This document shows positions 9,774-62,600 of a DNA stretch of 64,000 bases, one piece after another (positions within the stretch are counted from its first letter, which is position 1; every line of letters begins with the position of its first letter). The stretch spans positions 2,336 to 66,335 of the forward strand of contig DATMDV010000370.1 in NCBI GenBank assembly GCA_035557475.1. The letters are read 5' to 3'. A program made the translations under genes and the position numbers. The notes under the pieces were generated by a model. That model worked only from the letters and a program-made list of their open reading frames with translations, searched no databases and was not told the origin of the DNA. The stretch is from Ilumatobacteraceae bacterium. Lineage in GTDB: Bacteria; Actinomycetota; Acidimicrobiia; Acidimicrobiales; Ilumatobacteraceae.

Positions 9774-10346
9774 ATGCTCCTGTTGGTGCGTCATGGCGAA
9801 ACGCCACCGAATCGGCAGGGGCTGCTGTTGGGACGCGCTGATCCGTCGCTCACCGATGCCGGCCACGAGCACGCGCGACAGCTGGCGGCGACGTTGCCCG
9901 TTCCCGACCTCGTGGTCTCGAGTCCCCTGCGGCGGGCGCGCGACACGGCATCGGCGTTCGGTCGTCCGGTCGAGCTCGACGAACGTTGGATCGAGCTCGA
10001 CTACGGCGAGCTCGACGGTCAGCCGTCGGCCGCAGTCGCGGCCGGTGTCTGGGCGCAGTGGCGATCGGATGCATCGTTCGCGCCACCCGGCGGTGAGTCG
10101 TTGGACGCGCTTTCGATCCGCGTGCGTGCCGCATGTGCGGAGCTGGCGGCGGCCGCCGCGACGTCGACCGTCGTCGTCGTCACGCACGTGAGCCCGATCA
10201 AAGCGGCGCTCGCGTGGGCACTCGACGTGCCGGTCGGGATCGCGTGGCGGATGTACGTCGAGGACTCGAGCGTGTCGCGCATCGACATCGAGCCCCAGGG
10301 GCCGGTCGTCCGCTGGTTCAATCGCGGCCCGGTCCGAGTCGACTGA
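9774..10346 (+). CDS. histidine phosphatase family protein (phosphoglycerate-mutase-like)
   Basis: LLLVRHGETPPN (RHG motif), SSPLRRARDTA, VVVVTHVSPIKA. Confidence 0.8.
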   Translation: MLLLVRHGETPPNRQGLLLGRADPSLTDAGHEHARQLAATLPVPDLVVSSPLRRARDTASAFGRPVELDERWIELDYGELDGQPSAAVAAGVWAQWRSDASFAPPGGESLDALSIRVRAACAELAAAAATSTVVVVTHVSPIKAALAWALDVPVGIAWRMYVEDSSVSRIDIEPQGPVVRWFNRGPVRVD

Positions 10347-11352
10347 GGGCGCCGAAGAACGCGTCTGCCGCGGCGTCCCAGGTCGGAAGCGTTGCACCGC
10401 GACGCAACGCGGCCTCGGCAAGCGAACCACGCCATTCGTCGTCGGTGGCGAGTCTTCCCAGCACGGCGCTCAGCGCGTCGATGTCGCCGGGAATGACGAG
10501 GCATCCCTCCCGGCCGTCCTCGATGAGGTTGGGAAGGTTCCCGGAGCGCCACCCGACCGTCGGCAGCCCGGCGGACAGCGCTTCGGCGAAGACTGTTCCG
10601 TACGTCTCGGCGTAGCTGGGCAGCACGAAGACGTCGGCGCCGCCGTAGAGCCGCCCGACATCGTCACGCGTGACGGCACCGTGGACGACCACCCGGCCGG
10701 CCAGATCGGGATCACGCAGGCGGGCGCCCACCTTGGCCGAATACGACGGGTCGACATCCGACCGTCCGGCGAGATGAAGCGTCACATGGTCGGGCGGCAG
10801 CGCGGCGACCGCCTCCAGCAGTTCGAGTACTCCCTTGTTCGGGAGCCAGTTGCCGACACAGAGGAGCGCGATCCGGCGTCCGTGGCGAAGGTCACCGGAC
10901 GCCGACCGATCGACCGGTAGGTCACTGCCCGGTTCGACGACGCAGATCCGTTCCGCGGGGAGGCCGTAATCGTCGGCCAGCGCGCGTCCGAGCGCCGTGC
11001 TGGCCGCGATCAACAAATCGCATCGCCGGTACAGCGCCTGGTCGAACGGACGCTGCAGTGTCGTACGGAGAGGGCCCTGCCCGACGCCGCCCGGTGGCTG
11101 GTGGAGGATCGCCGCGATCGGTGAACGGCGACGCTGTCGGGCCACTACGTAGGGCGCGACCGCCCACGCCGCGAGACTGTCGACGAGCACGAGGCCGCGG
11201 GCCCCTCGGAGCGGGTTGCGGAACCACGGCACCGAGATGAACTCGATCTCGGCACCTCGGGATGCGGCCGCCTCGGCCATCCGCCGGTGGTAGAGATGTC
11301 CACCCGTCACCTGCGTCGGCGAGCCGCGCGTCACGAGCGAGATGACGACCAT
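10318..11352 (-). CDS. GT-B (GT4-like) glycosyltransferase, last gene of the PTPS-like/ADH operon
   Basis: The N-terminus MVVISLVTRGSPTQVTGGHLYHRRM and the C-terminal FVLPSYAETYGTVFAEALSAGLPTVG (EX7E-like) are typical of retaining GT4 enzymes. Confidence 0.75.
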   Translation of the reverse strand: MVVISLVTRGSPTQVTGGHLYHRRMAEAAASRGAEIEFISVPWFRNPLRGARGLVLVDSLAAWAVAPYVVARQRRRSPIAAILHQPPGGVGQGPLRTTLQRPFDQALYRRCDLLIAASTALGRALADDYGLPAERICVVEPGSDLPVDRSASGDLRHGRRIALLCVGNWLPNKGVLELLEAVAALPPDHVTLHLAGRSDVDPSYSAKVGARLRDPDLAGRVVVHGAVTRDDVGRLYGGADVFVLPSYAETYGTVFAEALSAGLPTVGWRSGNLPNLIEDGREGCLVIPGDIDALSAVLGRLATDDEWRGSLAEAALRRGATLPTWDAAADAFFGALSRLGPGRD

Positions 11353-11367
11353 GCCGGCCTTGACGCG

Positions 11368-11745
11368 TCAGTTGAGTCGATCGCTGTATCCACCGAACGC
11401 CACGGCCGACTCCCACACCCGCACCGACAACGTCTCCGCACCGGTGTTGCGGATCGCGTCCGCGAGGAAGTCGTGCGCCCAGCGCGCGAACACCTCGACC
11501 GTGACGGCCTCGGCGTCGGCGGGACGGATCACTTCGAGGTTCTTGCCGCGCACGGTCGCGTCGATGCCCTGCAGCGCGGCCTCGAGCACGTCGAGGTCGC
11601 AGACCATCCCCCGATCGTCGAGCTTCTCGCGCTCCACGACCACGTCGAGGCGGTAGTCGTGCTCGTGGAGCTCGCCTTCGGGCCCTTCGACACCGGGCAT
11701 GATGTGTTGCGCGGGGAACTCGATCGCGGTGCCGACTTGGAACAT
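11368..11745 (-). CDS. 6-pyruvoyl-tetrahydropterin synthase / QueD-family protein (variant)
   Basis: 125 aa. FPAQHIMPG corresponds to F-AAH-L. LHEHDYRLDVVV corresponds to the HGHNY zinc motif. No Cys is visible at the usual catalytic position before that motif. Confidence 0.7.
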   Translation of the reverse strand: MFQVGTAIEFPAQHIMPGVEGPEGELHEHDYRLDVVVEREKLDDRGMVCDLDVLEAALQGIDATVRGKNLEVIRPADAEAVTVEVFARWAHDFLADAIRNTGAETLSVRVWESAVAFGGYSDRLN

Positions 11746-11748
11746 GGG

Positions 11749-12744
11749 CTACCGGTACCCCAACGCCGCGTGGATCAATCCTTCGGTTCCGGCATCGATC
11801 GCGGCATAGGCCTCACCGGCCTGATCGAACGGGAACGTGTGGGTGGCGAGGCTGCCGAGGGGGAGCTCATCGAGAAGGTCGACGACGGCGCGTCGCCGCC
11901 GGTCGGCAGTCCAGCGATTCCCCAGCCGGGCGGGAATCGTCGACACCTGGGTGCTGCGAATCGTCAACCGGCGGCGGTGGAACTCGCCCCCGAGTGGCAG
12001 CGTCACTTCCTTTGTGCCATACCAGGAGGCCACCAGCACGGTGCCCTCGTGCGACAGCAACCCGAGCGCGGTCCGCAAGGCGTCGGGATTGCCCGACGCC
12101 TCGACGACGAGCGGAACTTGCGCGCGACACCCGTCCGAACCGAGCGCATCGGCCAGGGATTCGGGTGCGACCGCGTCGACGCCGAGACCGCCGATCGCAT
12201 CACGCCGCCAGGCCTGTGGCTCGACGGCGACGACCCGCGCTCCCGCGCGTTGGAGCAGGCACGCAGTCAGGCTGCCGACGACGCCGAGCCCGAGCACGAC
12301 AACGGTCTCACCGAGCAGCGGCCCGGCATCGAGGGTGATCTGCAACGCGGTCTCGACGAGGGGGAACAGCGTCGCATCCCGGGGCGCGACCGACCCGAGC
12401 GCCACGACATCGTCGGCGCTCGCCACGAACATGTCCTGATGGGGATGGAACGCGAACACCACCGTCCCTTCGGCGAGCTCGCCTCGACTCTCCTCGACGA
12501 CCCCGACGCAGCTGTATCCGTAGCGGAACGGGTAGCGGAACGTCCCGGCGAGTGTGCCAAGCGTCTCATCGAGCGGCAGGTCGGGATCGAGCTGACCGCG
12601 GTACGCCAGCATCTCGGTTCCCGCGCTGATACCCGAGAACGCCGTGCGGATCAACGATTGACCGCCTTCGAGCGGCGGGAGTCCTTCGACCCTGACGTCA
12701 ACCGACCGGGGACCCACGAACCAGAGCGATCGGGCGTTCCCCAC
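11749..12744 (-). CDS. medium-chain (zinc-type) alcohol dehydrogenase family oxidoreductase
   Basis: 331 aa. MDR architecture with Rossmann motif VVVLGLGVVGSL. GTG start. Confidence 0.7.
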   Translation of the reverse strand: MGNARSLWFVGPRSVDVRVEGLPPLEGGQSLIRTAFSGISAGTEMLAYRGQLDPDLPLDETLGTLAGTFRYPFRYGYSCVGVVEESRGELAEGTVVFAFHPHQDMFVASADDVVALGSVAPRDATLFPLVETALQITLDAGPLLGETVVVLGLGVVGSLTACLLQRAGARVVAVEPQAWRRDAIGGLGVDAVAPESLADALGSDGCRAQVPLVVEASGNPDALRTALGLLSHEGTVLVASWYGTKEVTLPLGGEFHRRRLTIRSTQVSTIPARLGNRWTADRRRRAVVDLLDELPLGSLATHTFPFDQAGEAYAAIDAGTEGLIHAALGYR

Positions 12745-12788
12745 GCGCGCCAGTTTGCCCTGGACCGCCAGGGGGTAAACGACGGCCC

Positions 12789-14126
12789 ATGATTACGAGC
12801 GAGGCGGTTCGAGTCCCTTTGCCGACCCCCTACGGCGTGTTCGACGTGCACGCCTTCGAACGGGCTTCCGGTCACGTGTACGTAGCGATGGTGCAGGGTG
12901 ACATCGGCGACGGCGACGACGTGCTCGTCCGCCTCCACTCGGAATGCCTGACCGGCGACGCGCTCGGGTCGCTGCGATGTGACTGTGGCATCCAGCTCCG
13001 ATTGGCGCTGCGGATGATCGCCGCCGAGCAGCGCGGGGTGTTGGTCTACGCCACCGGCCACGAGGGGCGGGGCATCGGCCTGGTCAACAAGCTCCGGGCG
13101 TACGTGGCCCAGGACGACGGCGCGGACACCGTCGATGCCAACGTCGTGCTCGGCTTGCCGATCGACTCTCGCGACTACAACGAGTCAGCCGCCGTCCTCG
13201 CCGAGCTCGGAGTCCGCACAACGCGACTGCTGACCAACAATCCACACAAGGTCGACGGGCTCAGGTCAGCCGGCACAGTCGTCACCGGGGTGGTCCCTCT
13301 GCCCACGTCGCCCCACCACCGCAACATCGGCTACCTCAACACCAAGGCGATGCGCATGGACCACGTGCGCCCGACAGGGCTGTCGGCAGCGATGGCCGAC
13401 GATGTGGACACGCCGGTCGATGCGATGGCGCTCCTCGGCGATGTTCGACCCCGTCCTGACCGACCGTTCGTCGTGCTCAAGTACGCGCAGACGCTCGACG
13501 GTCGCATCGCCACCTCCACTGGCGACTCGCAATGGATCAGCAGCGAGGAGGAACGGCGGCTTTCCCACGCGTTGCGGGCGGCGTGTGACAGCGTGCTCGT
13601 CGGCGTGGGAACGGTGTTGCGCGATGACCCGCAACTCACCGTGCGGATGGTGTCGGGGGCGTCGCCGATGCGGACCGTGCTCGACACGTCCCTGCGAATC
13701 CCGTCGACGGCCAAGATCCTCGGGCCGGGCGCCGGGACCACGGTGATCACGACCGAACGATCCGATCCGAACCGGCGCGCCGAGCTGCGTCAGCAGGGCG
13801 TCCGGGTGGAGGTCGTGGCGGAGCAATCCGGACAGGTGTCCCTGCGCGGCGCGCTCGCCGCGTTGCGGGCGTCGGGCACCGAGTCGGTGCTGGTCGAGGG
13901 TGGTTCCGAGGTGATCACCGGTCTGCTCGCGGCGGGGCTCGTCGATCGGATCATCGTCGCGGTCGCCCCGATCGTGATCGGCGCCGGCACACAAGCGGTG
14001 AACGGTCTCGGCGTCCAGAACATCGCCGACGGCATCCGCCTCACGAATCGTGCGATCCAACTGGTCGGCGACGACGTCGCGCTCGCCTGGGATGTCGTCG
14101 CGCCCCACCAGGCCAGGAACAACTGA
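12789..14126 (+). CDS. fusion: GTP cyclohydrolase II + RibD C-terminal (pyrimidine reductase) domain, no deaminase domain
   Basis: The N-terminal half has LHSECLTGDALGSLRCDCG (Zn Cys triad), GHEGRGIGLVNKLRAYVAQDDG and TNNPHK. The C-terminal half has FVVLKYAQTLDGRIATSTGDSQWISS, DDPQLTVR and VLVEGGSEVITGLL. Confidence 0.85.
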   Translation: MITSEAVRVPLPTPYGVFDVHAFERASGHVYVAMVQGDIGDGDDVLVRLHSECLTGDALGSLRCDCGIQLRLALRMIAAEQRGVLVYATGHEGRGIGLVNKLRAYVAQDDGADTVDANVVLGLPIDSRDYNESAAVLAELGVRTTRLLTNNPHKVDGLRSAGTVVTGVVPLPTSPHHRNIGYLNTKAMRMDHVRPTGLSAAMADDVDTPVDAMALLGDVRPRPDRPFVVLKYAQTLDGRIATSTGDSQWISSEEERRLSHALRAACDSVLVGVGTVLRDDPQLTVRMVSGASPMRTVLDTSLRIPSTAKILGPGAGTTVITTERSDPNRRAELRQQGVRVEVVAEQSGQVSLRGALAALRASGTESVLVEGGSEVITGLLAAGLVDRIIVAVAPIVIGAGTQAVNGLGVQNIADGIRLTNRAIQLVGDDVALAWDVVAPHQARNN

Positions 14127-14147
14127 GTCGCCGTCGCGTTCCCCGCA

Positions 14148-14609
14148 TCAACGCACGGCGGCCAACGCGGTCTGGAGGTCGACGAGCCCCTGGTACCGGG
14201 CGAGATCACACACCGTCGGTGGATCGGCCTCGTACCGGTAGCGCTGCACCCGCACGACGCCGTCGACGGCTGTGGCGATGAACACGGTTCCCGGCGGGAC
14301 GCCGTCTGCGGGCTCGTCGCCGGCGACACCGGTCGTGGCGACCGCCACGTCGCTCTCGAACATCCGGCACGCACCGAGTGCCATCTGCGCCGCCGCGTCG
14401 GCGCTCAACGTCGACTCGGCAGTCACGCCGAGAAACGACCGCTTCACCTGATCCTGATAGGCGACCAGGCCGCCACGAAGGAAATCGACGGCCTTGTCGA
14501 CCGACGCCAGCGACTCGGCGAGCCGCCCCGCGGTGCACGACTCGGCAGTGGCGATGCTGCGGCCCCCGAGCAGCCGGGCAGCCTCGGTTGCGAGCTCTAC
14601 GTGCCCCAT
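14148..14609 (-). CDS. CinA C-terminal domain / nicotinamide-nucleotide amidase (PncC-like)
   Basis: ATAESCTAGRLAESL, GGLVAYQDQVK, VATTGVAGD. Confidence 0.85.
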   Translation of the reverse strand: MGHVELATEAARLLGGRSIATAESCTAGRLAESLASVDKAVDFLRGGLVAYQDQVKRSFLGVTAESTLSADAAAQMALGACRMFESDVAVATTGVAGDEPADGVPPGTVFIATAVDGVVRVQRYRYEADPPTVCDLARYQGLVDLQTALAAVR

Positions 14610-14628
14610 CGAGACTCGACGCGCTGGA

Positions 14629-15042
14629 TCAGTTGTTCGGCGGTGCCGAACTGATCTGGCCGAGCGCCGAATCGCGGTCTCGGTACTCTGCGAGGTCCCC
14701 GATCGACAGGATCCCGATGGCGCGACCCCCGTCGACCACCGGGATGCGCCTCACTGCGCTGCCCTCCATCTTCGACACGACCTCCTCGACCTCATCGTTC
14801 GCTGACACCGTCTCGAGATCGGTCGTGGCGATGTCGCCGAGCGTCAGTTCTCCGGGGTCGTTGCCCTCGGCAAGGCCACGCACCACGATGTCGCGGTCGG
14901 TCACGATGCCGCACAACGCGCCATCGCGCTCGACGAGCACATCGCCGATGTTCCGATCCCGCATCGCGGTGGCGGCCTCGACGAGTGACGCGTCAGCACC
15001 GAACACGACGGGGTTCGCGGTCATCACATCTGCGACTTTCAT
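14629..15042 (-). CDS. CBS-pair domain protein
   Basis: Starts MKVADVMTANPVVF, preceded by AGGAG. Two CBS repeats (RNIGDVLV ... GIVTDRDIV; RRIPVVDGGRAIGILSIGDL). The track ORF was trimmed from 15276. Confidence 0.85.
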   Translation of the reverse strand: MKVADVMTANPVVFGADASLVEAATAMRDRNIGDVLVERDGALCGIVTDRDIVVRGLAEGNDPGELTLGDIATTDLETVSANDEVEEVVSKMEGSAVRRIPVVDGGRAIGILSIGDLAEYRDRDSALGQISSAPPNN

Positions 15043-56891: not shown

Positions 56892-59800
56892 TCACGGCCT
56901 CCATTCGGCGAGGTGCTCGGCCAGGTCGGCGAGCGCGGCCGCGACGGCAGGGTCGCGGACCAGGATCGCGAGCTCGGCGACGTACCGCGTCGGCGAGCCA
57001 CGCTCGCGGGCGGTCGAGCGGTGGCGGAAGACGTCGATGTAGGCCGCCTTGATCGCGTCGAGTGTCGGACCGTCGCTCAGCGACGCGTCGATCAGCGCTC
57101 GGGTGAGCGCCAGCTCCGGATGGGCGACGCGCCCCCAGAAGTCGGTGGCGGGACCCACGAAGTCAGGCGCGTCGATGGCCGCCAGGATCGCCGCCCGTCG
57201 GCTCGGTTGGAGGAGGCCGCCGATCCCGTCGAGTTGCAGCGCGCACAGTGCCCCGTAGGGCTTGCCGTCGAGCCGCCACGCTTCGGCGTAGGCCCGGGCG
57301 GCCGTGCGCAGTGCGGTCGTGCGTTCGCGACCTCGGGTGGACGCGGCGACGGCCTTCCAGAACCCGGCGTTGATGGCGACGCGCTCGGCGGTGCGGCCCA
57401 ACGCCAGCAACGTGGCGATCCGTGCCTTCGCCGTGTCGCGCAGCGTGGTCGCGGTCACAGGCGACTTGGGCTCGAGCGCGATGAGCGCGGCCAGCTCGTC
57501 CTTGTCGGGGGGCTGGGGCGATTCGAGGGCGGCGGCGAGGCGTACCTCGAGGTTGGCGAGCTGCTCGACGGCCTTCAGCGACACGTGGGCATCGGCGCAC
57601 ATGAGCGCCTTGCGGTACGCGCGGACGGAGTCGGCAAGCGCGCCGCACTCGCCGAAGCCTCCGCCGAGGGCGGCCCACACGTCTCCCCGTACGTCCCACG
57701 GGGGGATGGCGAGCCCTTCGAGCGCCCGCACTTCGGTGGCGATGCGGCTCTGATCGGCCCCTGGGTCCCCAGCCTGTACCGCCAGCGCGACGAGTGCCCG
57801 CACGAGCTCCTCGGCCGACACCGGGTGGCTCGCCGACGAGGAACGGGCGCCGGCCGCGGCCAACCGGAACGCGGGGTCTCCGTAGCACTGGTAGGCCGCC
57901 CACGTGTTCGACGCGCCCCCGTCGACCTGGTGGGCCGCGACGCGAGCGGCGCGCACCGCGATTCCGAACGCCTCACCGCCGAGCATCCGGTCGTAGAACA
58001 CCTTGGCGAACTCGGCGGCCGCTCGATCGTCGACCGACCATCCTGCCGCCACCACGGCCCGCACGCCCATGGCCATCAGCTTGCGCGAGAGGCTGGCCGC
58101 GAGCTGGGGGAGGCGGCCACGCTGGACGGCGAGGATCGCCTTGTCCGCAGTCTCGGGTGATCCGTCCCCCTCGCGGGACTCGGTCAGCACACTGCCGAGG
58201 TGGCAGCAGTTCAAGAACACGAGGCTCGGTGGACGACGCATCTGACCGATCTCCACTGCCGTGAGGTACTGGTTACGTCCGATGGCCACTCCGCCCCACG
58301 GTTTGCCGTCGCGCCCTTCGGGGTCGAACCACCCATGTCCCGCGATGTGCAGGATCTGGTAGTCGTCGGCGAGCAACATCCCGATCACGGCACCCGCGGA
58401 GCCAGCCTCTTCTTGCGCGTCGCCTTCGAAGATGACGGGGACCACGCGGACGTCGGCGGCGGCGAGTTGCTCCGCGACCGCCTTCGCCTCGCTCTGCGCT
58501 CCTTCCAATCGCGGGAACAGGGCACCGGCTGGTGGATCGCCGATCACCAGCGCGCGTGGGTGCACCGTCGACACGTCTCCCACGGGTCGGTCGATCAGTT
58601 TGAGCTGACGCACGAAGCCCATCCGCTTCACCAGCGGCTCGGGCCCGCCGAGCGCCGAGCGGTCGGCGAGCGCCTCCCATGGGATGTCGGCGGTCTGTTC
58701 GTCGACGACGAGCACGAGGTTCTCGACTGAACCCAGCTCGCGCTTCAGATCGTTCGGCAGGAGGAGCTCGAACAACGCCACGTTCACCGTGCCGTCGACG
58801 CGAGCCGATCCGACGGCGTCACGAACCATCCGCCCGACGAGACCGTTGTCGACCACGTGCGGGACGAGGTCGGCCCTGGCGCGGGCGCCGAGCGACGTGA
58901 ACATCAGCTCGACCAGGCCATCGCCGACCTTCTCGTCCGGCCCGCTGACGATGAGGCGGCGCCACATGCCTGCGCCGTACTCGGCCGTCGGCGCCGACGG
59001 CCGGCCGCCCTCGCCCACCACGAGGCGGTCGGATGGTCGCACCTCGCCGCCGGCCTGCAACGCCACCGGGAGGTAGCGCTCGATGTCGCGGACGATCCGC
59101 GCCGCGTCCTCCGCGCGCTGTTCGTACAGCTCGACGATCTCCAGCTCGTCGATGCGCACCGGGCGCTCGGTTTGCGACGAGGCCAGTTCGCGGTTGGCGA
59201 GAAGCACACCTTCGACGATGGCGCCGACGACGGTGGGGACCTGCAGCCCGTCCGGGCCGTAGCTGCCGACGAGCACCGAGGAGAGCCCGACGGTCACCGG
59301 TGTCGGCTCGTCGGCGTCGAGCAATGGTGGAACCGACGCCAGCGCGTGTTCGACGGCTGCGTTGTGCAGCGCTCGGGCGAGCGCGGTCGGCGTGAGGTCC
59401 CCCATCTCGCCGAGCCCGATCACGGCAACCCCGGCGAACGCCCCGAGCCGTTCCTCGCCGGCGGGCACGACCCGCAGCACGTCGTTCGGCGTCGCCGGAT
59501 AGCGGCCGAGCACCTGTCGAGCGGTCAGCCTGCCACCCAACAACCAGTCGGCCCACTCCTCGGCACCGCCGAACGGTGTGCCTGCGTAGTGACCGAGCAC
59601 CACGAGGTGGCTGGCGTGCTCGAGACTGGCGTGGCGCACCGAGACCTTCAGGGTGGGCAACGGGGCGTCGACGAGCCGCAGCGTGCCGAGCCAGCTGCTC
59701 GTGGCTTCGTCGACGTACTGCCGAGCGATCGTCGCGCGCTGTTGTCGACTCGGCGCGCGTCCGCGGACGGCACGGGCGAGCGGGATCGGGTCGATGAGCG

Positions 59801-62600
59801 GTGGCAGTTCGAGCTCGTCGCCCGCAACCCAGTCGAGAGTCGTCGGAGCGCGTCGAGCGACGACTGGTGCCTCGGTCGGCAGGATGTCGGTCGCACCCTT
59901 GCGCAGCAGTTCGGACACCGCGGCGACGACGTCTCGGTCGGTCGTGAGGCCTCCGTGATCGGCGGTCGAGTACCAGACCTTCGTGATCGCCGGTCGACCA
60001 TTCGCGTCGCGGGCGATGCCGGCATCGTGGGTGACCCGACCGTCACCGGCTCGGGTCTGCTGGAAGCGAAATCGTCCTGGCCCTTCGATCCGCAGCTTGG
60101 CAGGAGTGTCATGCCCACTGCCGGCGACGTAGAGCATCCGCGCCGCGTCGAACCCGTCGGTGGCCAGCGCGACATGGATCCGTCGCGCCTCGTCGAGCAA
60201 CGGCTTGCGCACCTGTTTCGCCTCCCAGCTGGCCGGGTCGTACAGCCGGGCATGCTCGCTCTCCCCTTCCGGTAGGTCGGGTGACGGAAGGAGTTGGTAG
60301 GCGCCGGGAAAGCTGGCGACGATCTGTTGCACCTCATCGCGGTTGTTGCGCAGGTCGAGCCGGGCGAGCCAGCGCACCATCTTGTCCTCGGCGGTCAGCG
60401 CGGTGGCGATCGACAGCGACCCGAGCGACGGGGTTCCGAGCATCACCAGCCGACCGCCCTTGGCGACGTCGCCACGGTCGAAGAGTCGATCCCACGACTT
60501 GCGGTGCCGGGCCCGCAGCATGCGGCACACGAGGCCGCCCATCGAGTGGGCGACGAGGTGGGCCGGCTGACCCCACTCGTCGACCTTTTTGGCGAGGAGG
60601 TCGGCGGCGGCGTCGATCCCGAGCCGCCAGTCGAACGCCACGGGCACCACGTCCCACTCACTGTCGAGTCCCATGATGAGGGGGAGATAGACGCGATAGA
60701 GGCCGTCAGCGCTGATGTCGTCGCCGGCCGGATGACCCAGACGGCGGAACTCACCGTTGACGAGACGCAGGGGGTTGATCCAAATGCGGTCGCTGTCGCC
60801 ACCCCGCTCGTGCGCCGACAGCAGCGAGCCCATGATGCCGTGCAGCACGAACACGCGACCGGCCTTGGACGCTCCCGCGCCCCGCGCGAACCGGTCGAGA
60901 GCAACCGGGCCGATCTGCGCCTCGAGGGCCCGGCGGTCGCGCTCGGACAGGGCCTGGATGGCGGTCCGAACACCGTCGAGATCGCCGGCGGCGAGGCGCT
61001 CGTCGACGCCGGCGAGCGGATCGGTCTCCTCGGTGCCGGTGAGCAACGCCGGCCCGGCCGCGCGGGCCAGCGTCGTGCCCGCCGCAGCCGGCGTCGCCCG
61101 CAGCGCGGGATCGGCGGCACCGAACCAGCGCTCGAAGGCGGCGATCACATCGGCCGCTGTCCAGAACGACGAATGGTCGACGCCGCGGGCCGCCGGCAGC
61201 ACGACCCGCTCGGTGATCGGAAAGCCGGTCGCGCCATTCCACTGGTAGGTGCTGCTCGTCGGAACGATGAGGTCGTTCGGTTCGTAGTCGAAGACGTGGT
61301 CGAACAGCGCATCGCGGGCGATGCGCGCCAGACCACTCCCACGCGGCGGCTCGTAATCGGAGGCGATCGCGCGGTAGCGGGCGGTCACCGGCCGGGGCTT
61401 GTTGAGTTGGGCGAGGAAGCCGTCGGCATCGTGTTCCGCCGCTCGCATCGCCATCAGTCCGTCGAGACCCTTCATCGCCGAGACCGCCAACTGCTTGACC
61501 ACGCCGACGACGCCAGTGATCGTGTCGAGCACCGGACTGGCCGGGTTGTCGGGCACGAGGTCGACGAGGTTCGTGAGCGAATCGACCAGACCGCCGAGGT
61601 GGTCGGGGTCGGCGAGCGGCGTGCCGTGGCTCGGTGTCGCCACGAACACCACCTGGCGGACGCGAAGACGTCCGGAGCCGATGCCGACGTCGTCGGCGCG
61701 CTCGGTCAGCATGCGGGCGACGAGACCGCCCCGCGAATGCGCGAGCACATCGACTTCGAGTCCGGCGTCGGCGGGAAGCATCTCAGCCAGCCGCCGGCAG
61801 TTCTCGGCCGGGTCGATCGACAGGGTGGGATGGTCGAACGCAAACACGCGGCCGTCGTATTGCTGGTGGAGGCGGGCGACGACATCGTCGGGGAGCCGGC
61901 CGAACCCCGAGTGCGTGAGGCAGTTGACGCCATGGAGCACCAGCAGCGCCGGGCCCTTGGCCAACTCGAGGAGATCCGGTGATTCGCCGGCGGGCAAGCG
62001 GTAGTCCTTGACCGTGAACGTACGGAGCCGGTGCGGTCGGGCCTGCTCCTCCCACCGGCGGACGAAGAAGTCACCCACCTCGCCTGCCACCTTGTCGACG
62101 AGCTCGAACGTGAGCACGTGGAGCACCTTCTTGGCGAGCCGGCCGACGAGCCCTCGCGACGCCACGACATCGTCGCCGTCGTCGGCATCGGTGACGAGGT
62201 TGATCCTGAACGTCGAGCCCGCTGGCGCACCGCGACGCCGTGAGGCGCCGGGCGCTGACGCCTCCGGAAACACCCACCGAAACGCACCGGCGTCCTCGAC
62301 CAGGAGCACCTGGCCCTGACCGGGCGGCGGTGGCGGCGCGGTGAGCTCGACCGACGCCGCGACATCCGGTCCGATCGGCATCGGCCCACCACCTCGCCGG
62401 GGCGCTCGAGACAAGATCGTGGGGTGGGCCTCCACGGTGGCACCGGCGACCTCTTCGAGCCCGGCGGCGGCCAGCGCGGCGCTCACGGAACCGGGCGGTG
62501 CCGATCGGTCCGGAAGTGCGACCCGCACGTCTCCGCGTGTGGCCGCGAGTCGCAGCCCTCCCATCTCGATCGGTGCGCCGCCCGACTCCAACTCGGTCAT
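56892..62600 (-). CDS. 1902-aa multidomain protein: two lipase-like alpha/beta hydrolase domains + CHAT (caspase-like) protease domain + C-terminal helical-repeat region
   Basis: - Nucleophile elbows VLAHSRGG (Ser ~289) and LVAHSMGG (Ser ~686).
- CHAT dyad context: YQILHIAGHGWF (His ~1422) and PSLVFLNCCHLGS (Cys ~1465/1466).
- The last ~380 aa are Ala/Leu-rich, TPR-like helices.
- No signal peptide.
- GGAGG lies 6 nt before the ATG. Confidence 0.75.
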   Translation of the reverse strand: MTELESGGAPIEMGGLRLAATRGDVRVALPDRSAPPGSVSAALAAAGLEEVAGATVEAHPTILSRAPRRGGGPMPIGPDVAASVELTAPPPPPGQGQVLLVEDAGAFRWVFPEASAPGASRRRGAPAGSTFRINLVTDADDGDDVVASRGLVGRLAKKVLHVLTFELVDKVAGEVGDFFVRRWEEQARPHRLRTFTVKDYRLPAGESPDLLELAKGPALLVLHGVNCLTHSGFGRLPDDVVARLHQQYDGRVFAFDHPTLSIDPAENCRRLAEMLPADAGLEVDVLAHSRGGLVARMLTERADDVGIGSGRLRVRQVVFVATPSHGTPLADPDHLGGLVDSLTNLVDLVPDNPASPVLDTITGVVGVVKQLAVSAMKGLDGLMAMRAAEHDADGFLAQLNKPRPVTARYRAIASDYEPPRGSGLARIARDALFDHVFDYEPNDLIVPTSSTYQWNGATGFPITERVVLPAARGVDHSSFWTAADVIAAFERWFGAADPALRATPAAAGTTLARAAGPALLTGTEETDPLAGVDERLAAGDLDGVRTAIQALSERDRRALEAQIGPVALDRFARGAGASKAGRVFVLHGIMGSLLSAHERGGDSDRIWINPLRLVNGEFRRLGHPAGDDISADGLYRVYLPLIMGLDSEWDVVPVAFDWRLGIDAAADLLAKKVDEWGQPAHLVAHSMGGLVCRMLRARHRKSWDRLFDRGDVAKGGRLVMLGTPSLGSLSIATALTAEDKMVRWLARLDLRNNRDEVQQIVASFPGAYQLLPSPDLPEGESEHARLYDPASWEAKQVRKPLLDEARRIHVALATDGFDAARMLYVAGSGHDTPAKLRIEGPGRFRFQQTRAGDGRVTHDAGIARDANGRPAITKVWYSTADHGGLTTDRDVVAAVSELLRKGATDILPTEAPVVARRAPTTLDWVAGDELELPPLIDPIPLARAVRGRAPSRQQRATIARQYVDEATSSWLGTLRLVDAPLPTLKVSVRHASLEHASHLVVLGHYAGTPFGGAEEWADWLLGGRLTARQVLGRYPATPNDVLRVVPAGEERLGAFAGVAVIGLGEMGDLTPTALARALHNAAVEHALASVPPLLDADEPTPVTVGLSSVLVGSYGPDGLQVPTVVGAIVEGVLLANRELASSQTERPVRIDELEIVELYEQRAEDAARIVRDIERYLPVALQAGGEVRPSDRLVVGEGGRPSAPTAEYGAGMWRRLIVSGPDEKVGDGLVELMFTSLGARARADLVPHVVDNGLVGRMVRDAVGSARVDGTVNVALFELLLPNDLKRELGSVENLVLVVDEQTADIPWEALADRSALGGPEPLVKRMGFVRQLKLIDRPVGDVSTVHPRALVIGDPPAGALFPRLEGAQSEAKAVAEQLAAADVRVVPVIFEGDAQEEAGSAGAVIGMLLADDYQILHIAGHGWFDPEGRDGKPWGGVAIGRNQYLTAVEIGQMRRPPSLVFLNCCHLGSVLTESREGDGSPETADKAILAVQRGRLPQLAASLSRKLMAMGVRAVVAAGWSVDDRAAAEFAKVFYDRMLGGEAFGIAVRAARVAAHQVDGGASNTWAAYQCYGDPAFRLAAAGARSSSASHPVSAEELVRALVALAVQAGDPGADQSRIATEVRALEGLAIPPWDVRGDVWAALGGGFGECGALADSVRAYRKALMCADAHVSLKAVEQLANLEVRLAAALESPQPPDKDELAALIALEPKSPVTATTLRDTAKARIATLLALGRTAERVAINAGFWKAVAASTRGRERTTALRTAARAYAEAWRLDGKPYGALCALQLDGIGGLLQPSRRAAILAAIDAPDFVGPATDFWGRVAHPELALTRALIDASLSDGPTLDAIKAAYIDVFRHRSTARERGSPTRYVAELAILVRDPAVAAALADLAEHLAEWRP

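Follow-up and report, generated by a model that had tools for sequence, protein, structure and literature searches.

A conserved GTP cyclohydrolase II module of an Ilumatobacteraceae bacterium as a candidate route to a GTP-derived glycoside

In a 64-kb stretch of DNA from an Ilumatobacteraceae bacterium (contig DATMDV010000370.1), six features at 9774-14126 were analyzed and are read here as one module for a GTP-derived glycoside other than riboflavin. The whole 64-kb stretch is referred to as the window, and the probability of this reading was put at about 0.55. The module consists of a GTP cyclohydrolase II (GCH II) fused to a RibD_C pyrimidine reductase domain, a divergent operon for a dehydrogenase, a T-fold protein of the PTPS/QueD family and a GT4 glycosyltransferase, a short control region between the two, and a convergent histidine phosphatase gene. 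As our best guess, the pathway would yield a pteridine or ribitylaminopyrimidine in glycosylated form. The predicted opening of GTP by GCH II and reduction of the ribosyl chain by RibD_C are well supported by domain and motif matches. An earlier note on this DNA had proposed a non-canonical glycoside pathway for four of the genes. That these four genes form one conserved functional unit and are not chance neighbours is supported, because they remain syntenic in two phyla and in loci whose flanks differ and because the reductase and dehydrogenase also occur as a gene fusion, but the chemical product proposed with them is not established.

Module layout and conservation

The features of the module are as follows.

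9774-10346, plus strand: histidine phosphatase (branch 1, RHG motif), 190 aa (Pfam His_Phos_1, E 1.5e-45)
10318-11352, minus strand: GT4 glycosyltransferase, 344 aa (Pfam Glycos_transf_1 and Glyco_transf_4)
11368-11745, minus strand: PTPS/QueD-family T-fold protein, 125 aa (Pfam PTPS, E 4e-21)
11749-12744, minus strand: BchC-like medium-chain dehydrogenase/reductase (MDR), 331 aa (Pfam ADH_zinc_N)
12745-12788, no strand: divergent control region, 44 nt (read from the sequence)
12789-14126, plus strand: GCH II-RibD_C fusion (PF00925 at aa 7-170, PF01872 at aa 226-431)

All four open reading frames (ORFs) called by the earlier note are present where it had placed them, as judged from ORF translations, Pfam and third-position GC content (GC3), and exactly 44 nt (12745-12788) separate the fusion from the operon, as it had stated. 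The GC3 of the module ORFs was 0.81-0.90, which matches real genes in a genome of 70% GC, and GC content was approximately 70% across the window. On the minus strand, 3 nt separate the dehydrogenase and PTPS genes and 15 nt separate the PTPS and GT4 genes, while the histidine phosphatase gene runs toward the GT4 gene, with a 29-nt overlap at the 3' end of the latter. The phosphatase is a further member of the module beyond the four genes considered previously, and it is co-conserved in many loci. The closest relatives of the window proteins came from metagenome-assembled genomes (MAGs) of Ilumatobacteraceae and Acidimicrobiia.

Conservation was determined by scanning one genome per GTDB species for relatives of the T-fold protein, using a 12-sequence alignment as the query. 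At least 354 stretches with a relative were obtained, 80 of which were examined together with 3 loci from protein look-ups. The dehydrogenase gene was located directly upstream of the T-fold gene in all 83 loci (83/83). A GCH II gene was found at most 7 kb from this pair in 66 loci, and a histidine phosphatase homolog was found near the pair in 66/83. In the first of two layouts (layout A; 38 loci from Acidimicrobiia and some other actinomycetes), the fusion faces the dehydrogenase, PTPS and GT4 genes as in the window. The fusion, dehydrogenase and PTPS genes were always present in these 38 fusion-bearing loci, and a GT4 of the window type (at least 40% identity) was present in 37. The minus-strand operon is thus co-conserved with the fusion, which rules out the absence of co-conservation that had been named as grounds for giving up the proposal. 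Moreover, gene clustering revealed no flanking family common to more than 9 loci outside the conserved families of the cluster itself. Since the flanking families vary in this manner, the module moves as a unit.

Related operons were also found in Chloroflexi-like bacteria. Proteins with the PTPS-IV-like motif FGPAxRxHGH, one of them labelled Chloroflexi by NCBI, were about 30-38% identical to the window T-fold protein. One Chloroflexi-type locus (L087) holds a co-directional operon of GCH II, RibD_C, dehydrogenase and PTPS genes with a convergent GT4 gene, and a second (L086) holds RibD_C, dehydrogenase and PTPS genes with a GT4 gene. In a third (L085, 6194-8008), a single 604-aa fusion of RibD_C and a BchC-like dehydrogenase is encoded directly upstream of a PTPS-IV-type gene. 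Identities between the Chloroflexi-type and window proteins were 57% for GCH II, 45-50% for RibD_C, 44-46% for the dehydrogenase and 50% for the GT4 (E 1e-96). The gene fusion and the recurring gene order indicate that the reductase, dehydrogenase and T-fold protein belong to a single pathway, in which this is probably also the order of their action.

These data bear on the explanation that the genes are chance neighbours, the fusion being a housekeeping riboflavin enzyme, the GT4 belonging to a polysaccharide locus, and the dehydrogenase and PTPS protein being a QueD-like leftover. Numerous further GT4 genes do occur in the window, and from approximately 17.8 kb onward there is a polysaccharide locus. 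However, this explanation is contradicted by the synteny across phyla with different flanks and by the gene fusion, and the GT4 is 50% identical to the GT4 of the Chloroflexi-type clusters. In addition, the GT4 of a related Streptomyces cluster resembles the other GT4 proteins of the window only in short local stretches, and the T-fold protein lacks the Cys and Asp-His residues of QueD, with no queC or queE found near its gene. Chance neighbourhood is therefore highly improbable. Assignment of the GT4 to the downstream polysaccharide locus was rejected by the synteny in other genomes, and the predicted module is regarded as separate from that locus.

The second layout (layout B) was found in 45 loci from Streptosporangiaceae-type MAGs. 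Here, the dehydrogenase, PTPS and phosphatase genes are followed by a CDP-alcohol phosphatidyltransferase/sulfatase-like fusion (41/45), an LPG_synthase_TM gene (39/45), a stand-alone GCH II gene and methyltransferase genes. In one of these loci (L052, 8170-12524), the LPG_synthase_TM gene overlaps and directly precedes the stand-alone GCH II gene. The SCO6649-SCO6655 cluster of S. coelicolor is collinear with the window in its dehydrogenase, PTPS homolog and GT4 order and also has a GCH II. In a cluster of this type at a Streptomyces locus (L084), a CDP-alcohol phosphatidyltransferase gene (6980-7765) stands beside a series comprising dehydrogenase, PTPS, GT4, methyltransferase-like, LPG_synthase_TM (12052-13269), 187-aa protein and GCH II genes. 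Its proteins were 39% (dehydrogenase), 30% (GT4), 53% (GCH II) and 26% (PTPS) identical to those of the window.

It may be asked whether the module instead makes a membrane or envelope constituent, namely, a GTP-derived polyol-phosphate head group that is placed on a lipid or a polymer and flipped to the outside, the form in Acidimicrobiia being reduced, with its membrane genes elsewhere. In favour of this, the dehydrogenase-PTPS-phosphatase trio of layout B lies beside the phosphatidyltransferase fusion and LPG_synthase_TM in most loci, and both families recur in the Streptomyces cluster with identities of 55% and 47%, respectively, to the Streptosporangiaceae-type proteins. However, no homolog of the CDP-alcohol phosphatidyltransferase, LPG_synthase_TM or methyltransferase partners was detected in the 64-kb window (tblastn) or in the 38 fusion-type loci, the first two families were also absent from the Chloroflexi-type loci L085, L086 and L087, and the module proteins of the window are predicted to be soluble-type enzymes. 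A membrane constituent was considered improbable for the window module.

Predicted activities of the module proteins

The fusion protein was matched by PF00925 (GTP_cyclohydro2) at aa 7-170 with an E-value of 5e-56 and by PF01872 (RibD_C) at aa 226-431 with an E-value of 5e-52. Both halves passed the NCBIfam cut-offs for true members, with 207.7 against 205.85 for ribA (TIGR00505) and 196.2 against 150.15 for ribD_Cterm (TIGR00227). The earlier claim that the fusion lacks deaminase and RibB domains was borne out, as neither a deaminase domain nor the DHBP-synthase domain of RibB was matched by Pfam. The model for bifunctional RibD (TIGR00326) covered the fusion only at profile positions 137-343 and scored below its cut-off (154.2 against 156.35). 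The motifs CLTGD...CDCG, EGRGIGL and RAY reported for the fusion, and LHEHDY reported for the T-fold protein, were all found in the translations. In the full-length alignment of the GCH II domain with E. coli RibA, the zinc-binding Cys triad (C53/C64/C66) and the Tyr switch of KLRAY (Y105 in E. coli) both aligned and were kept in all aligned relatives, the Tyr being conserved in 65/65 sequences. Spoonamore et al. 2006 reportedly found that the Tyr of this switch separates formate-releasing GCH II from the Met-type SCO6655, which stops at the formylated formamidopyrimidine (FAPy). A Streptomyces GCH II homolog examined here has Met at the switch position (KLRAM), whereas the window protein has Tyr.

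The PDB matches of the fusion were M. tuberculosis RibBA, E. coli RibA and the pyrimidine reductases 6P8C, 2AZN and 2B3Z, among which the stand-alone reductases 6P8C and 2AZN were closest to the reductase domain. The Lys of VVLKYAQTLDG in this domain was conserved in 38/38 aligned sequences. At the position of K151 in B. subtilis RibG, the window reductase has Lys, whereas Asn is found in the archaeal enzymes and His in the Chloroflexi-type orthologs. The reductase Lys was rejected as proof of a deaminated substrate; because Chloroflexi-type RibD_C has His there, the residue at this position may not decide specificity, and the substrate may have either a 2-amino or a 2-oxo ring.

In the case of the dehydrogenase, Pfam matched only the Rossmann half (ADH_zinc_N) and not the GroES-like ADH_N domain. 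The motifs GISAGTE and GYSCVG, a GxGxxG motif followed by the acidic residue Glu175 (NAD-type), and an invariant HPHQ were found. Ser40 of GISAGTE and Tyr77 of GYSCVG stand at what we take to be the catalytic zinc-ligand sites, which were located by the canonical GxCGxD and GHE motifs with no zinc-dependent alcohol dehydrogenase aligned. The dehydrogenase is thus predicted to be without catalytic zinc ligands and not to be of the zinc-dependent MDR alcohol dehydrogenase type. Its nearest solved relatives, according to the PDB matches, were threonine and sorbitol dehydrogenases, which oxidise a secondary alcohol beside an N- or O-bearing carbon. The best NCBIfam match was BchC (TIGR01202) with 68 bits against a cut-off of 291.25, and the assignment as BchC was rejected because the score lies far under the equivalog cut-off. 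A 90%-identity cluster mate was named '2-desacetyl-2-hydroxyethyl bacteriochlorophyllide A dehydrogenase' by JGI, and this name is an over-annotation given 68 against 291 bits.

The T-fold protein was matched by PF01242 with 75.5 bits against a cut-off of 22.4 (E 4e-21). Its AlphaFold (AF2) model had a pLDDT of 97.8, and the best Foldseek match of the model was 3D7J (SCO6650 of S. coelicolor; TM 0.85), followed by E. coli QueD chains (TM 0.73-0.79). The same entry, 3D7J, was the sole PDB match by sequence. The His triad H14/H27/H29 aligned with H16/H31/H33 of QueD and was kept in 83/83 loci, and the protein is predicted to have the full metal (Zn) site. The earlier note had described no obvious catalytic Cys. 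This holds for the catalytic position, which is occupied by Glu23 (conserved in 83/83), but the protein does contain one Cys, C49, which is conserved in 82/83 relatives and lies away from that position. Altogether, Glu23, the His triad, Cys49, Asp50, Glu84 and Glu112 were kept in 82-83 of the 83 relatives. The Asp-His dyad of QueD (D70/H71) aligned with Arg66-Gly67, and Glu112 aligned with a conserved residue of E. coli QueD, Glu110; this Glu anchors the 2-amino-4-oxo ring in T-fold enzymes.

The signatures of PTPS-I, PTPS-II and PTPS-III are CxxxHGH, CxxxxxHGH and ExxHGH (PMC5041015). The corresponding window signature is E23-G-E-L-H27-E-H29, with Glu at -4 and HEH in place of HGH, and it does not match the QueD, PTPS-II or PTPS-III signatures. 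The TIGR03367 (QueD) score was 41.8 against a cut-off of 89.25. Assignment as QueD was rejected on account of this score, the missing Cys and Asp-His dyad and the lack of que genes nearby. A Glu as the catalytic residue is on record for P. vivax PTPS in the titles of PDB entries 3LZE and 3M0N.

PTPS-IV, a COG0720 subfamily established by the de Crecy-Lagard group, has the signature FGPAQ (PMC5445326). In the 2017 neighbourhood-network paper, PF00925 and PF01872 appear as neighbours of the PTPS-IV clusters (561 sequences; PMC5445326), and the same neighbourhood is found at the window locus. The window protein resembles PTPS-IV in having a PTPS fold without the catalytic Cys and in this shared neighbourhood, and its FGPAxRxHGH relatives stand in the same operon type. 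However, it has EGPEG where PTPS-IV has FGPAQ, and a GPE with Glu at the Cys position is invariant in its subfamily. The window module is thus a variant of an already published orphan association of PTPS-IV with GCH II and RibD_C, not a new kind. In the literature searched, no functional assignment or named product was found for PTPS-IV or the SCO6650-SCO6655-type cluster.

The GT4 was matched by Glycos_transf_1 and Glyco_transf_4 (Pfam, NCBIfam) and is of the retaining GT-B type, with the EX7E motif AETYGTVFAE in its translation. In several Acidimicrobiales loci, the PTPS gene is separated from the conserved GT4 gene by a second GT4 gene in the opposite orientation (7389-8525 in L022; also in L025, L030, L031, L033, L034 and L037), which suggests a diglycoside in those modules. 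The best specific NCBIfam matches of the histidine phosphatase were below their cut-offs, the top one being alpha-ribazole phosphatase CobC.

Within the 44-nt divergent gap, positions 12753-12780 form an imperfect palindrome (GTTTGCCC-N12-GGGTAAAC), the two halves of which are each placed 8 nt upstream of a start codon. In 12 related loci, the half-sites were invariant or nearly so and the spacer was variable. The palindrome may serve as an operator, or its halves may be the -10 boxes of two leaderless promoters arranged back to back. As a conserved element in a control region that both transcription units share, it speaks for a single module. Scans of 9600-14800 for promoter and terminator consensus sequences gave no match.

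Proposed pathway and competing explanations

The window offers no riboflavin operon context. Pfam searches of most called genes revealed neither RibB/RibBA nor RibH nor RibE in the 64 kb, nor any further gene for riboflavin, folate or F420, and the sole Rfam match was a tRNA, with an FMN riboswitch not detected. In the scanned flanks of the related loci, no pterin-dependent enzymes or F420 genes were found. The comparative data, namely, the co-directional gene order, the RibD_C-dehydrogenase fusion and the 50% identity of GT4 proteins across phyla, lead to an ordered, testable pathway hypothesis.

In the first step, the intact Tyr-switch GCH II would open GTP to 2,5-diamino-6-ribosylamino-4(3H)-pyrimidinone 5'-phosphate. 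In the second, RibD_C with NADPH would convert the ribosyl chain to a ribityl chain. In the third, the NAD-type MDR may re-oxidise a secondary ribityl hydroxyl, most plausibly at C2', the site to be expected for enzymes of this class. Reduction at C1' and oxidation at C2' would amount to a net Amadori rearrangement, and the resulting 2'-ketone could close on the 5-amino group to give a 7,8-dihydropteridine with a trihydroxypropyl phosphate side chain. If the 2-amino group were kept, this compound would be dihydroneopterin 3'-phosphate, which resembles the substrates of the PTPS family. Such an intermediate would account for the fact that the gene which follows always encodes a PTPS-fold protein with a ring-anchoring Glu. 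In the fourth step, the T-fold protein, with its His triad and Glu23, might rework the side chain or the ring. In the fifth, the GT4 would add a sugar and the histidine phosphatase would remove the remaining phosphate, as in two-step synthase/phosphatase pairs. MshA and the histidine-phosphatase-type GpgP are examples of glycosylating a phosphorylated acceptor and then dephosphorylating it. Phosphatases of the histidine family also take ribityl and ribosyl 5'-phosphates of N-heterocycles as substrates (PMC12051542).

The assignment of the dehydrogenase, T-fold and GT4/phosphatase steps exactly as specified is tentative and of low confidence, and the specific redox-Amadori-pterin route is doubtful. 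It is unlikely that the whole amounts to a GCH I-independent pterin route common to Actinomycetota and Chloroflexi-like bacteria, leading to a new glycosylated pteridine and, in Streptomyces and Streptosporangiaceae, to a membrane-anchored derivative (GCH I being GTP cyclohydrolase I).

The proposed pathway can be compared with four known systems. In the cyanobacterial route to tetrahydrobiopterin glycosides, GCH I, PTPS, sepiapterin reductase and a pteridine glycosyltransferase act. In general terms, both systems run from a GTP-opening enzyme through a PTPS-fold protein and redox chemistry to a GT-B enzyme. However, the window has GCH II and a pyrimidine reductase in place of GCH I, an NAD-type MDR in place of a short-chain dehydrogenase/reductase, and no PTPS catalytic triad. 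The early riboflavin pathway is resembled in that GCH II and RibD_C score as true members and the phosphatase falls in the family of the Aquifex phosphatase acting on the ribityl-5'-phosphate pyrimidine ARAPDP, whereas the window lacks the deaminase, RibB, RibH, RibE and FMN riboswitch and has three extra co-conserved enzymes. In Chlamydia, GCH II (RibA) and an Amadori-type isomerase (TrpF) constitute a dihydroneopterin route to folate pterin (PMC4161248). As proposed for the window, GCH II there replaces GCH I as the pterin entry, and the ribosylamine passes to a 2-keto (Amadori) form that cyclises. The difference is that Chlamydia uses one isomerase for the purpose of folate synthesis, whereas a reductase and a dehydrogenase, two redox steps and a glycoside are proposed for the window. 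Related to the proposed intermediate, PTPS-III may use the monophosphate in some Archaea (PMC5041015).

The fourth system is the Streptomyces cluster, from which the window form differs in five respects. These are the RibD_C fusion and the phosphatase, neither of which was found in the Streptomyces cluster within the 18 kb inspected; the Tyr switch, where SCO6655-type GCH II has Met; the His triad with Glu23 in GPEGE, where FGPAQ stands in the SCO6650-type proteins, which are without the third His (LHGATF); and the absence of membrane genes, where Streptomyces adds the CDP-alcohol phosphatidyltransferase, the methyltransferase-like protein and LPG_synthase_TM. The window version is the simplest form of the module, with five predicted soluble-type enzymes, a Tyr-type GCH II and a full T-fold metal site. 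It is therefore the most tractable for in vitro reconstitution from GTP.

Several points weigh against a GTP-derived glycoside module. Every step beyond GCH II and RibD_C is our inference, and the product is known only as a prediction. The sequence of reducing and then re-oxidising the chain is roundabout. Glu23 is replaced by Ala in PTPS-IV proper, and SCO6650-type proteins lack the third His, so that the T-fold chemistry cannot rest on Glu23 or the third His in all lineages. The membrane genes and methyltransferases stand in place of the GT4 in layout B and are held by the Streptomyces cluster too, which hints at a lipid-linked product there. Moreover, in a paper on the RibG structure, Lys K151 is said to favour the deaminated substrate, which does not suit a module without a deaminase. 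Finally, a review citing unpublished work states that PTPS-IV acts in F420 synthesis (PMC5041015).

In a further explanation, the module would be a dedicated supply line for 5-amino-6-ribitylaminouracil, from which both riboflavin and the F420 chromophore derive. GCH II and the reductase would produce the ribityl diaminopyrimidine phosphate, the T-fold protein would stand in for the missing RibD deaminase domain, and the phosphatase would take off the 5'-phosphate. Both Actinomycetota and Chloroflexi are phyla known to make F420. The fusion has no deaminase domain, and a T-fold protein bearing the His triad occurs in every case. The review remark on PTPS-IV fits this explanation as well, and a histidine-family phosphatase dephosphorylates ARAPDP in Aquifex (PMC12051542), the family to which the window phosphatase belongs. 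However, a supply line would leave without a role the dehydrogenase, which is always adjacent and once fused to RibD_C, and the co-conserved GT4. The active-site geometry of the T-fold fits deamination poorly, as the metal of the PTPS fold lies near the side chain and far from the Glu-bound 2-amino group. Furthermore, SCO6650-type members are without the full metal site, and no fbiC-, cofC-, cofD- or cofE-like Pfam domain was found in the neighbourhoods inspected, namely, the window and the related loci. The supply line was therefore judged rather unlikely, and the glycoside module is retained as the preferred reading.

In terms of breadth, genes of the PTPS-IV type and of the SCO6650/SCO6655 cluster occur in Streptomyces generally, with at least 8000 proteins, and the subfamily of the window is represented in at least 354 stretches of GTDB species representatives. 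If the module does make a new pteridine or pyrimidine glycoside, this would be a widespread and so far unnoticed metabolite or cofactor of soil bacteria.

Other observations in the window

Further neighbours in the window include a CinA/PncC domain protein, a CBS protein, a DUF72 protein, UdgX and PhoX, none of which was kept beside the module in the related loci examined. The UdgX-family uracil-DNA binding protein (8242-8892, minus strand) scored 253 bits against a cut-off of 190 for TIGR03914. A PhoX alkaline phosphatase (6537-8213, plus strand) and a 1266-aa protein (1475-5275, minus strand) that lies nearby and combines phosphodiesterase, metallophosphoesterase and 5'-nucleotidase C-terminal domains resemble a pair for phosphate scavenging. 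A tRNA-Arg (CCG) gene at 5408-5481 (plus strand) adjoins a gene for a membrane protein (5521-6546, minus strand), which is likely a diguanylate cyclase according to the RYGGEEF motif read from its translation.

A large glycan locus extends from 17787 to 56878. It encodes a CapD-like dehydratase, a chain-length/ATPase protein, an epimerase, a UDP-glucose dehydrogenase, at least six GT4/GT2 proteins, an ABC-2 permease, a priming sugar transferase, two polysaccharide deacetylases and six sulfotransferase-domain proteins, and this content suggests a sulfated exopolysaccharide. The locus also holds an acyl-AMP ligase gene beside an 85-aa ORF, and it has at its end a gene for an EF-Tu-like GTPase, perhaps CysN. 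A 1902-aa ORF (56892-62600, minus strand) showed a strong coding bias, with a GC3 of 0.86.

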